Source: an uncultured Gemmatimonadales bacterium
Lineage (GTDB): Bacteria; Gemmatimonadota; Gemmatimonadetes; Gemmatimonadales; GWC2-71-9
Reading direction: 5' to 3'
Assembly (NCBI GenBank): GCA_963695555.1
Contig: CAVOGR010000007.1
Location: 206,139 to 270,138 of the forward strand
Length of the DNA stretch: 64,000 bases
Shown: in pieces, positions 33,578-36,376 of the stretch
Layout: each line of letters opens with the position of its first letter
Position numbering within the stretch: the first letter of the stretch is position 1
Program-made: the position numbers and the translations under genes
Notes under the pieces: generated by a model
The model's database searches: none
What the model was told of the DNA's origin: nothing
What the model saw: only the letters and a program-made list of their open reading frames with translations

Positions 33578-34324
33578 ATGGAGCAGCTGCAGGCACGCAC
33601 GCAGCTTGTACGCATCCGTGCGGAACTGATTGCTGCCGACCTGGAGGCGCACGACACCGCGTTCCCGTCCCTTCGGTCAGTCGATGCACGTGTCCGCGAG
33701 GTCAAGCTCATTCTGAGCAGCATTGGTGCCACGCTGCTTCTAGATGAGATGGAGAAGGACGCCGACTTCGGCGCGAACAGCCGGCGCGTTAGACTCGAGG
33801 CGCTCGCAAACTACTGCGCGACAGCACTAACCTTCCTTGACGCTGGCGCTTTGGGCCGTAAGAGACAGCTGGTTCGGGGTCCCTCCTTTCACCGCTTGAC
33901 CGTGGTTATGCCAGGCCTGGAGGAAGTTGTGCAAGAGCGCTGGCTCGAGGCCCAGCGGTGCCAGCATGCGAAGGCTTATCTTGCCGCTGTCATAATCATG
34001 GGTAGCATTCTTGAGGGCCTGCTCCTTGCGCGCGCGTCTCTCGATGCTCCTGCCGCTTTCCGAGCAGCAGCGGCCCCGCGGGCTCGCGACGGCAAGAACG
34101 TCGCCCTGCAGGACTGGAAGCTCTCGGCGCTGATCGATGTTGCTGTCGAGCTGCGTTGGCTCAAGAGTGACCGAGGTAGCTTCTCCCACGCGCTCCGGCA
34201 GTCACGCAACGTGTTACACCCATGGGAGCACGTATCCAATGCAGCAAATTTTGATGAGGCGACCTGCGGAACGTGCTGGCACGTCCTGAACGCGGCTGTC
34301 CAGGACCTCCTCGTCTCTATTTAG
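33578..34324 (+). CDS. hypothetical protein with C-terminal HEPN-like Rx6H / RNxxH motif
   Basis: 248 aa. LRQSRNVLHPWEH (34196-34219) follows a helical region. GAGGAG RBS. Lower-GC region. Confidence 0.4.
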   Translation: MEQLQARTQLVRIRAELIAADLEAHDTAFPSLRSVDARVREVKLILSSIGATLLLDEMEKDADFGANSRRVRLEALANYCATALTFLDAGALGRKRQLVRGPSFHRLTVVMPGLEEVVQERWLEAQRCQHAKAYLAAVIIMGSILEGLLLARASLDAPAAFRAAAAPRARDGKNVALQDWKLSALIDVAVELRWLKSDRGSFSHALRQSRNVLHPWEHVSNAANFDEATCGTCWHVLNAAVQDLLVSI

Positions 34325-34357
34325 CAGACTTTCACCCCGGAGCCACTAGCTGCGCGA

Positions 34358-35578
34358 ATGACCGAGAACAAACCGGTATCGCTGCCGAGCGTTGCGCTCG
34401 TTCAAGCATCGGAAGTGCCATCGCTGCTAGAATGCATCCGCCCGTCGTGGCAGGCTAAGAATCTCATCGGGCGCGTCAAGAAACTCATTGAGGTCGACCC
34501 CAGCAGTGCGTGCCAGCGCTTGTTCAACGCTGCCATTCACGACCTGAGGGAGAAGATCGTCGTTGCTGGCCTCGACATTGCGCGCGAGGCAGCGAAGCAA
34601 AATAAGCTCCCCCCGGTCGACCGGCCTGAGGATGTTGAGAATTACTCTACTGAGCGACTGATCGAACTTGCCTATCGTGTCGGTTTGCTTACGCGTCCAG
34701 ATTGGCGTCGGCTCTCACGCTGCTACGAGATTCGCCGGGACCTTGAGCACGAGGACGATGAGTATGAGGCGGGTGTAGAGGATTGCATCTATATCTTCAA
34801 GACCTGTATTGAAGTTGTTCTTTCTCGCGATCCGGTACACTTGATAAGAGTCGCCGATCTGCGCGATGTTGTCGAGCAGCCCACACCCGCCATTCTCGCT
34901 GACTCCCTTGTCGCGGATTTTGCCGCCGCACCGCAGCCCCGGCAGGATGAAATCGCGCGTTTTCTAATCAGCATTGCACTCGACAAGGATCAGTCTGAGA
35001 TAGTTCAACAGAACGCCTTCAATGCGATTGCCCGCCTCGCTGCCCATACCCAGAACGCGGTCAAGCTCCAACTCGCTACACATTTCCAGGAGCGGATCGG
35101 CAAGAAGGGGTTGGATCGCCGCCATGCACGGGTTGCTTATGCGGCAGGTGTGCTACCCTACCTCAAGAAGGCTGATGTCGTTCAATGCTTCGAGGACGTG
35201 TACGCCCAAATGAAGAAAGTCGGGTCGCACTGGAGCGGCCACACTGAACATGGCGAGCTGCTTCGTTCGTTTCGAGAGTTGGGCGGCGTCGGCGCTGTGC
35301 CGGCGGAGTCACGAGCCAAGTTCCTAAAATGGATGGTGTTCACGTACTTAGGGGAACCTGGCGGCATGACATCGTACGGCAATGTACGGCATGTTTTCTA
35401 CAGCAACACGGCGGCCCCGTTGATCACGACCCAGATCCGCGAGGCAGCCCACCTCATCGGCAGCGAACTCAAGAAGCTTAAAGCCGACAAGGATGTCGCT
35501 ACGCTTTGCACCAACGCCCACATCGCTCGGCGGTTTGAGCTCCTCCTCGACAAAGTCGAGGGTCCAGATGTGGCCTAA
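34358..35578 (+). CDS. hypothetical protein with N-terminal HEPN-like Rx4H motif
   Basis: 406 aa. CYEIRRDLEHEDDEY (RRDLEH at 34733-34750). Confidence 0.4.
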   Translation: MTENKPVSLPSVALVQASEVPSLLECIRPSWQAKNLIGRVKKLIEVDPSSACQRLFNAAIHDLREKIVVAGLDIAREAAKQNKLPPVDRPEDVENYSTERLIELAYRVGLLTRPDWRRLSRCYEIRRDLEHEDDEYEAGVEDCIYIFKTCIEVVLSRDPVHLIRVADLRDVVEQPTPAILADSLVADFAAAPQPRQDEIARFLISIALDKDQSEIVQQNAFNAIARLAAHTQNAVKLQLATHFQERIGKKGLDRRHARVAYAAGVLPYLKKADVVQCFEDVYAQMKKVGSHWSGHTEHGELLRSFRELGGVGAVPAESRAKFLKWMVFTYLGEPGGMTSYGNVRHVFYSNTAAPLITTQIREAAHLIGSELKKLKADKDVATLCTNAHIARRFELLLDKVEGPDVA

Positions 35579-35674
35579 CCGGGCGTGACCCTTCGGGCAC
35601 GGATGTCCTTGGATCTCATTGCCTAGGGCCGAGGGTATGCCCCAGTCGTTAGACAGCTCCTGACTTGAGGTAGC

Positions 35675-36376
35675 ATGGATCCTTGGATACCTGGGTCGAC
35701 ACCAGTCTCCGTTAAGCAAGCCCACTACCTTGACGGACTACGGTTCTGCTTTGAAGCCGCAAGTTTGGCCGGGCCTCGACTGGAAGAATCCCTCCTCAAG
35801 ACAGCTAGAGCACTTGTACTGAAGGAGAGGAACTACCGAGTTCCCACTATCAATGCACTTACAGATGCATGGCTCGTTGTTGATGCAGTGTTCCGTGCCC
35901 GAAGACTAATCTCGGGGCTTCCAGGCCTAAAGCATAAGAGATCTCCTGGCAGGACTGTCTTCTTGAAGAGAACGGCCGAAGTCGAGCCGCTGCGCAACAC
36001 GATTCAGCACCTCGATACCGATATGAAAGATCTGACGGACGTAGAAGAACGGGCTTGGGGTACTCTAGAGTGGTTTGCTTCTCTTCCAGAAACCGGGCAC
36101 AAAGTTCATTCCCTGTTGCTGGTTCCTGGCTTTAAGGGCGGCGGTACATACCGACTCTGCACAATCGCCAGAGCTCCACTTACGCAGCGCATCGACCAGA
36201 TCATTTTGCGCTGTCGCAAGGCCCAGTTGAATATTTCAGATGCTGTTCTGGCAATGAACGAACTGGATCAAGGTCTTCGCAAATCGCTCGGCACACCATA
36301 TGCAGGTCCTCCAATCGATGAAAGAGACATGCTGTTCCACGCTGTCGCGCGCATCGACCCAGTTAATGATCGATGA
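35675..36376 (+). CDS. hypothetical protein with HEPN-like RNxxxH motif
   Basis: 233 aa. EPLRNTIQHLDTD (RNTIQH at 35993-36010). Confidence 0.4.
   Translation: MDPWIPGSTPVSVKQAHYLDGLRFCFEAASLAGPRLEESLLKTARALVLKERNYRVPTINALTDAWLVVDAVFRARRLISGLPGLKHKRSPGRTVFLKRTAEVEPLRNTIQHLDTDMKDLTDVEERAWGTLEWFASLPETGHKVHSLLLVPGFKGGGTYRLCTIARAPLTQRIDQIILRCRKAQLNISDAVLAMNELDQGLRKSLGTPYAGPPIDERDMLFHAVARIDPVNDR

Follow-up and report, generated by a model that had tools for sequence, protein, structure and literature searches.

Results

The locus

Three consecutive genes for hypothetical proteins, here named A, B and C, lie on the plus strand of a 64,000-nucleotide stretch of DNA from an uncultured Gemmatimonadales bacterium (contig CAVOGR010000007.1 of assembly GCA_963695555.1; the whole analysed stretch is referred to as the window, and all positions are those of the window). 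A first-pass annotation, made from the sequence alone, had placed them in a low-GC islet as co-directional open reading frames (ORFs) that encode proteins of 248, 406 and 233 aa, and had proposed that together they form an array of HEPN-type proteins. The ORFs were confirmed at their positions, with a gap of 33 nt between A and B and of 96 nt between B and C. The islet, its genes and their domains are as follows (GC3, G+C content at third codon positions).

33358..36476, no strand: inserted islet, 3,119 bp, delimited by blastn breakpoints against two same-genus genomes (G002 and G004) and by low G+C and GC3
33578..34324, plus strand: gene A, 248 aa, with a conserved helical N-terminal region and a C-terminal DUF4145-like (HEPN clan) domain
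33935..34321, plus strand: C-terminal domain of A (~aa 120-248), with the invariant L-R207-x-S-R210-N211-x2-H214-P215 (34193-34222)
34358..35578, plus strand: gene B, 406 aa, with an N-terminal HEPN-like domain and a C-terminal alpha-solenoid
34445..34837, plus strand: N-terminal helical domain of B (~aa 30-160), with the invariant R126-R-D-L-E-H131 (34733-34750)
34850..35560, plus strand: C-terminal all-helical solenoid of B (~aa 165-401), from Foldseek; presumed sensor
35675..36376, plus strand: gene C, 233 aa, with an N-terminal helical domain that holds the invariant R107-N-x2-Q111-H112 (35993-36010) and a C-terminal beta/alpha domain

The low-GC islet of the first-pass annotation was borne out: G+C content is 0.52-0.58 across 34250-36500 as compared with ~0.69 on both flanks, and GC3 is 0.69 for A, 0.66 for B and 0.50 for C, as compared with 0.84-0.92 for the neighbouring genes. 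Homology by blastn to G002 and G004 ends at 33357 and restarts at 36477, thus 3,119 bp in the window replace ~42 bp of these genomes, where a thrC-like (threonine-synthase-like) gene and a beta-propeller lipoprotein gene are separated by 26-32 bp. Each of the A, B and C families occurs once in the host genome, and none was found in 60 relatives, the sole exception being one standalone A-type C-terminal domain. By insertion and by composition, the islet is foreign, horizontally acquired DNA; a chimeric assembly is unlikely, as the same native locus flanks the insert on both sides. Neither a target-site duplication nor a terminal inverted repeat was found at the islet ends, no recombinase was found at the insertion site, and no tRNA gene lies within the window.

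Conservation of the Rx4-6H motifs

The case for HEPN domains had been built on one Rx4-6H motif per protein, and all three motifs were recovered in place (A, R207-H214 at 34196-34219; B, R126-H131; C, R107-H112). A pattern of this kind calls for caution, since it arises about twice per protein by chance: 1.7-2.8 matches per protein are predicted from composition, and six control genes of the window hold from 0 to 7. A chance origin had been named in advance as grounds for abandoning the HEPN reading, and the bare pattern is indeed no rarer than chance; the cited instances, however, are invariant within each family, with the R and H retained in all 39 sequences of the A family, all 37 of the B family and all 55 of the C family. 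The cited motifs therefore count as meaningful because they are invariant per family, not because the pattern is rare. A and B each have a further invariant pair (R199/H204 and R54/H61, respectively); the remaining matches to the pattern in A and in C show no conservation within their families.

Gene B

More than 1,300 homologues of B were found at ~60% identity, from Patescibacteria to Planctomycetota and in addition in archaea of the ANME (anaerobic methanotrophic) groups, and B is single-copy in 43 of 44 genomes. Invariant residues of the family are R126, D128, L129, E130, H131 and E132. The AlphaFold2 model of B (predicted local distance difference test (pLDDT) 88.5) is almost entirely helical, and by DSSP it begins with helices 48-70 and 72-81 and extra short helices at 90-108; helix 113-131 then terminates in the R126/H131 motif and is followed by a loop (132-139) and helix 140-155. 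In the published description of HEPN domains (PMC3710099), the Rx4-6H motif closes helix 3 ahead of the loop that leads into helix 4, and helices 2 and 3 are separated by an insert; both the helix topology and the motif position of B conform to this.

Profile-profile alignment by hhalign of the B N-terminal domain with the HEPN domain of the Ishtar anti-plasmid proteins (described with gene C) gave an E value of 0.0014 over 153 columns with the motifs in register (reversed control, 0.14), the best score among all hhalign pairs compared. B also matches a phage protein family, phrog_27609 (E 8.7e-12). On the whole, B is likely to carry a real HEPN domain.

Two characterized proteins resemble B in layout. 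DARNA (formerly PD-T7-3) consists of a HEPN domain (aa 1-159) with R117-x4-H122 and a Pds5/HEAT-like helical domain, and is a dodecameric tRNA anticodon nuclease activated by single-stranded DNA bound to phage SSB (single-stranded-DNA-binding protein) (bioRxiv 10.64898/2026.02.22.705581). Like DARNA, B is encoded by a single gene and has an N-terminal HEPN-like domain of ~160 aa with Rx4H (R126/H131 in the place of R117/H122), after which comes an all-helical HEAT/Pds5-like solenoid of ~250-300 aa; unlike DARNA, it is ~50 aa shorter, and the PADLOC PD-T7-3 model does not match it at E<=1.

BxaP combines a DUF4145 domain with a HEAT-like domain, is embedded in BREX or type I restriction-modification (R-M) loci and protects against T4 through abortive infection. 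B shares with it a length of ~400 aa, an N-terminal DUF4145/HEPN-type domain and a C-terminal HEAT-like domain, as well as the R-M association of its family; the occurrence of BxaP in phages is paralleled by the PHROG match of B. A hidden Markov model (HMM) of the B family places R126/H131 onto R110/H115 of BxaP in a shared 'YE[IM]R....H..YE.A...VLSR.P', at an E value (0.0017) that is significant for one targeted comparison only. By sequence, B and BxaP are not significantly similar (E 0.49 by BLASTP and 0.14 by hhalign), and BxaP is reported to be rare whereas the B family comprises >1,300 clusters. As modelled, B has the DARNA/BxaP-type architecture.

Gene A

Homologues of A, >500 in number and 54-79% identical, are spread over many phyla, and 49 columns are invariant in the 39 aligned sequences, including R207, R210, N211, H214 and P215. 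R207 is followed by Q, so that A carries a conserved Rx4-6H with a polar residue after the R, as HEPN domains do. Matches to Pfam DUF4145 (PF13643) were obtained for 14 of the 39 members, all below the gathering score of 23.1 bits (best E 2e-4); these always fall in the C-terminal domain, where residues ~125-228 align to positions 2-81 of the 88-position profile, and DUF4145 is the only family to recur among the sub-threshold matches. The copy in the window itself has no DUF4145 match in Pfam. Genuine DUF4145 domains from related genomes read R-x2-G-N-x3-H-P where A reads R207-x2-R210-N211-x2-H214-P215. The hhalign comparison of A with BxaP (E 0.057) is in register and level with the positive controls. 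The N-terminal 110 residues of A are highly conserved, hold one cysteine and match no known family.

DUF4145, a HEPN family with links to restriction-modification systems (PMC3710099), forms the catalytic domain of the anti-phage RNase (ribonuclease) RAZR (PMC13017515). A resembles RAZR (PD-T7-4) in its C-terminal DUF4145-type domain with an R-x2-(G/R)-N-x2-3-H-P block, in the presence of a second, N-terminal domain and in the R-M-associated contexts of its relatives; it differs in having no N-terminal Cys4 zinc-finger and no PADLOC PD-T7-4 match, and from DUF4145 proper in that all Pfam matches of the family are sub-threshold and the window copy has none. Judged from sequence features, from which its fold is predicted, A probably carries a real HEPN domain, a divergent one of the DUF4145 type. 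The standalone domain mentioned above is a 142-aa ORF of a same-order genome (G043:C15:39582-39908) that matches the A-family C-terminal, DUF4145-like domain only (E 2.7e-18), thus this putative A-type HEPN domain also occurs alone.

Gene C

An exhaustive HMMER search at E<=1e-3 returned 1,191 representatives of the C family. Only eight columns are invariant in an alignment of 55 sequences (22-35% identity to the window copy), among them R107, Q111 and H112; N108 follows R107 and the family consensus is also RN, so that an Rx4-6H with a polar residue stands at the end of a helix. In the AlphaFold2 model (pLDDT 90.2; predicted template modelling (TM) score 0.88), long helices at 13-48 and 55-80 and then short helices precede the motif, R107/H112 closes helix 103-111, and a four-strand sheet and helix 187-204 come after it. 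The 55 members have no Pfam or PDB sequence matches; where family members match PADLOC weakly, the models are mostly ones with a HEPN domain (tm_HEPN, Csx28 and Cas13a). Location of the motifs in a HEPN cleft had been suggested as a structural check, and its outcome was divided: the motif of B stands where helix 3 ends, and C has no significant HEPN match in the PDB.

Ishtar anti-plasmid proteins are monogenic, of 210-260 aa, with an N-terminal HEPN domain bearing RNx[IVL]EH and a C-terminal beta-strand/helix domain, and are patchily distributed near defence genes (bioRxiv 10.64898/2026.07.06.735840). C is like Ishtar in architecture only: a single gene for 233 aa, the motif RNTIQH, and a helical N-terminal domain followed by a beta/alpha domain. 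It is unlike Ishtar in having Q in the motif where Ishtar has E and in showing no significant homology. The two align in register by hhalign at E 0.019 (probability 2.4%; reversed control, 0.21), a score poorer than that of the Ishtar HEPN domain with the N-terminal domain of B. A stronger match of the Ishtar HMM to one C-family member (E 5.8e-5) was dropped as its motifs are out of register. Whether C carries a real HEPN domain is close to an even call that leans towards yes, the fold being predicted from the motif and its helical setting.

In two C-family loci (L091:24-1625 and L093:481-1920), the domain is fused to long C-terminal arrays of TPR repeats. Such fusions would fit a variable sensor joined to a constant effector.

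Linkage and genomic context

Adjacent genes in one genome do not amount to a system, and the proposed joint action of the three HEPN-type genes was weighed against the loci of their relatives. These included 83 other B loci, of which 44 had the full 10 kb of flank on both sides and most had several kb to at least one side. None of the 83 holds a C gene, and one holds an A-like domain, 5.6 kb away; linkage of A, B and C was likewise unseen in 5 A loci and 12 C loci. Nor does the nearest relative of A (77% identity), of B (77%) or of C (56%) adjoin the other two families. No neighbour of B is conserved (the most frequent neighbour cluster, HsdR, is present at 6 of 81 loci), and hhalign detected no mutual profile similarity among A, B and C. 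The differing GC3 of the three genes also argues against a long shared history. A three-gene system was therefore rejected for lack of linkage elsewhere, and with it the single array of the first-pass annotation: the three genes are an accidental stack, not a three-part system.

Upstream of the closest A relative, a 311-aa protein (L114:49-984) carries ERNAFQH and LRNQVIH motifs and has no Pfam match; it is a tandem-HEPN candidate, and HEPN genes may tend to cluster.

The neighbourhoods of homologues, suggested in the first-pass annotation as a place to look for defence genes, proved informative for B. An N6_Mtase (HsdM-type) gene lies <=10 kb from B in 5 of the 44 genomes with full flanks, with 0.53 expected (P 2e-4), an enrichment of ~9-fold next to type I restriction-modification methylases. 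HsdR, OLD/Gabija-type AAA-Toprim ATPases and relaxases are recurrent B neighbours, and one B locus (L112) adjoins a DUF1156-type methylase. The R-M association of the B family is absent from the window locus. In Micavibrio, B comes after Vsr, a Dcm methylase and a 266-aa unannotated protein, with ArdA and AbiEii nearby. Relatives of A are found beside a serine recombinase and PemK, in a PglZ/DUF1156/SNF2 cluster, and beside a methylase and a 267-aa unannotated protein; relatives of C are flanked by Mrr and DUF559 endonucleases or have an integrase and a T5orf172-helicase nearby. A tie to defence, claimed from the motifs in the first-pass annotation, thus holds for relatives of all three genes, which stand beside R-M, Abi (abortive-infection), toxin-antitoxin and mobile-element genes; it does not extend to the position of the islet itself, outside any defence island. 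As to a HEPN-MNT pair, A, B and C match no nucleotidyltransferase family in Pfam, and the islet holds no other gene.

Two further recurrences were seen. The 266- and 267-aa unannotated proteins (L082:7138-7938 and L087:6185-6988) are 54.5% identical, and each lies directly 3' of a DNA methyltransferase and directly precedes a B homologue in Micavibrio or an A homologue in a soil metagenome. From position only, this protein is probably an orphan restriction endonuclease, to whose R-M module the A and B families both attach. In three Bacteroidota loci (L057, L066 and L070), an AAA_15-AAA_21-Toprim protein of OLD/Gabija type lies near B, at gaps of 37, 96 and ~1,010 bp, respectively, which could be a lineage-specific pairing.

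Other features of the islet and its surroundings

Outside the three coding regions, the following features were recorded.

33407..33422, no strand: palindrome CTAGGG-TTTC-CCCTAG, read from the sequence, 50 nt inside the left junction
33552..33579, plus strand: sigma-70-like promoter match CTGACC-16-TACAAT, abutting the A start codon; weak evidence
35573..35654, plus strand: attC-like imperfect hairpin of 82 nt, GCCTAAC...GTTAGAC, overlapping the B stop codon; its ends pair (ΔG −28.8); significance uncertain
36443..36476, plus strand: start of the downstream beta-propeller lipoprotein gene (its first 11-12 codons), insert-derived by comparison with the empty site

The palindrome had already been noted upstream of the genes and was found again as described. 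For the sigma-70-like pattern, one match was obtained with 0.8 expected in shuffles. The hairpin is the only intergenic candidate of its kind in the islet, against a background of ~1 per 34 kb in the compared loci.

The lipoprotein gene holds the right junction within its 5' end and reads MMPRVMQGYSGPVLVLAMLLSAC in the empty-site genomes and MRLITANYLIPLLGLAMLLSAC in the window. In the lipoprotein signal peptide the n-region is new and the lipobox LSAC is retained, and expression of the gene now depends on islet-supplied sequence. Unrelated genes lie downstream of the thrC-like gene in two more same-genus genomes, namely a small lipoprotein and a 402-aa protein in one (G001:C81, L125) and a GNAT-like protein and BKACE in the other (G003:C55, L126), thus the 3' side of the thrC-like gene is a variable, recurrent rearrangement point in the genus. 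The thrC-like gene itself is split into two frames in the window (ORFs 32122-32973 and 32600-33355; split at ~32590-32610) and also in G002, and is a single intact 410-aa ORF in G001; the split reflects a frameshift or else a sequencing error in a homopolymer.

Discussion

The reading that we favour, at a probability of about 60%, is that the islet holds three independent single-gene defence modules, each a predicted HEPN-type RNase of the abortive-infection type with a second domain of its own. Taken by itself, a defence role for A, B and C appears reasonably likely. The first-pass annotation had seen no recognizable partner or sensor; each protein has its own second domain that could sense. 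It had also matched the genes to no named system, which stands so far as significant sequence similarity goes; architectural relatives nevertheless exist for all three, RAZR/DUF4145 for A, DARNA/BxaP for B and Ishtar for C, so that A, B and C each share the design of a recently characterized class.

The characterized single-protein systems RAZR, DARNA, BxaP and Ishtar suggest a mechanism in which each protein acts as a metal-independent RNase. The HEPN domains would dimerize, such that two Rx4-6H motifs make one composite active site, which would stay closed in uninfected cells. A cue from the invader would be sensed by the non-catalytic domain (the helical N-terminal region of A, the HEAT-like solenoid of B or the beta/alpha domain of C); the opened RNase would then cut tRNA or other RNA, and this cleavage would lead to a growth stop (abortive infection) or to plasmid clearance. 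RNase activity, dimerization, triggers and defence phenotype are all proposed by analogy with these systems, and the HEPN fold of A and C is a prediction. What the data demonstrate is the insertion and its foreign composition, the absence of linkage among the three genes, the motif invariance, the domain layouts of B and C and the enrichment of B beside type I restriction-modification methylases.

Several results weigh against this reading. The A, B and C proteins of the window are unrecognized by Pfam, NCBIfam and PADLOC, and all profile-profile scores fall far short of database-level significance; that of A with BxaP is inseparable from its reversed control (0.11). Foldseek of the whole B chain against the PDB gives only ARM/HEAT/PUF repeat proteins, and those weakly (E 8e-3; TM score <0.3), and the same search of a viral library gives nothing. 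For C, Foldseek against the PDB gives no significant match: the best hits, at E 0.5, are generic four-helix bundles, and one HEPN toxin (8yuf_B) appears only at rank 50 (E 4.2). The islet itself lies between metabolic and lipoprotein genes, outside any defence island, and 39 of the 44 B genomes with full flanks have no N6_Mtase gene <=10 kb from B. The HEPN-like signatures originally proposed are accordingly retained in part: the motifs are family-invariant and in helical contexts, with weak DUF4145 matches for A and a HEPN topology for B, and the fold search for C yielded nothing significant.

How much the silence of the libraries tells can be gauged from known cases. Searched against Pfam by hmmscan, the experimentally validated BxaP gives nothing, and Ishtar-family members give nothing or sub-threshold matches to HepT/DUF3644 only; since hmmscan misses both, the lack of Pfam matches for B and C does not count against a HEPN domain. 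With the small alignments used for hhalign, comparisons among accepted HEPN families give E 0.054-0.6, and the C-Ishtar score of 0.019 ranks above these positive controls. None of the three families was detected by hhalign against a 10-sequence DUF4145 alignment, a test of low power because accepted families also fail it (BxaP-DUF4145, E 0.6). Searches of PDB sequences with the A, B and C family profiles returned noise only. As judged by sequence, no membership of A, B or C in any named family is supported.

That the three proteins cooperate after all as one three-component system, for example through hetero-oligomeric HEPN active sites or with one protein restraining the others, is extremely improbable. 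Such a system would suit the co-directional genes with their short gaps and single common insertion and the action of HEPN domains as dimers, and the closest A relative also adjoins a protein with two RNxxxH motifs; yet no linkage recurs in the B, A or C loci, GC3 is unequal, and the families are mostly solitary, each with its own extra domain and without mutual profile similarity. A greater, still low, probability attaches to the proteins being HEPN-type RNases that process RNA or serve as toxins, of the selfish-addiction or stress-response kind, rather than as anti-phage or anti-plasmid effectors. HEPN domains do occur in toxin-antitoxin and RNA-processing proteins (PMC3710099), and besides the position of the islet, many neighbours of B and C are housekeeping genes. 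No MNT or antitoxin-like partner is adjacent, however, the families are patchy and horizontally spread with B enriched beside restriction-modification genes, and those proteins of like layout that have been assayed are defence proteins. More serious, though on balance unlikely, is that C, or with lower probability A or B, lies outside the HEPN superfamily and that the invariant R-N-x2-Q-H of C stands in another helical fold with another function. A model of pLDDT ~90 with no significant HEPN match, the 55 members devoid of Pfam and PDB sequence matches and the one better Ishtar HMM match being out of register are what this alternative would lead one to expect; on the other side stand an RNxxxH with a polar residue after the R at a helix end, as in HEPN, an in-register alignment with Ishtar that scores better than the BxaP-Ishtar positive control, the weak PADLOC matches to HEPN models and the weakness of Foldseek on short helical bundles.

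The hairpin raises a further alternative, concerning the origin of the islet rather than its function: a remnant integron-type cassette array, built by attC recombination, whose integrase is not nearby. Its RYYYAAC and GTTRRRY cores, with the element beginning on the B stop codon, a like element at the same position in one other B locus (Micavibrio, L005; 0.2 expected), the compact, co-directional and promoterless-looking genes, and the finding of Ishtar-type genes in integrons (bioRxiv 10.64898/2026.07.06.735840) speak for such an array. Three genes with one candidate site, an A-B gap of 33 nt that is too short for attC, no site after C, no such site in 71 of 72 other B loci and no integrase seen beside the islet make it very improbable; integron-cassette mobility as a general feature of the B family was rejected (1 of 72 loci).

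Within the favoured reading of three independent modules, A, B and C might be founding members of three new, widespread families of HEPN immune sensors that are self-contained, differ from RAZR, DARNA/BxaP and Ishtar and have triggers of their own, a tentative proposal that we hold to be somewhat less probable than its opposite. B is the strongest candidate for a new family, with its >1,300 clusters, ~60% identity reaching from Gemmatimonadota-like bacteria to ANME archaea, single-copy occurrence and R-M enrichment. If the proposal is true, such conservation in the horizontally moving B would imply that a universally invariant molecule is recognized or cleaved, and three distinct sensors within 3.1 kb would be a minimal layered RNase arsenal.

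Single-protein HEPN RNases such as RAZR, DARNA, BxaP and Ishtar have only lately been seen as a major class of bacterial immunity, and annotation libraries still overlook them, as the validated BxaP without a Pfam match illustrates. The islet presents three large unnamed families of common design, with the empty site of sister genomes as a natural comparison. Because the B family is abundant, conserved and R-M-associated, one experiment on B could give a name to thousands of hypothetical proteins.

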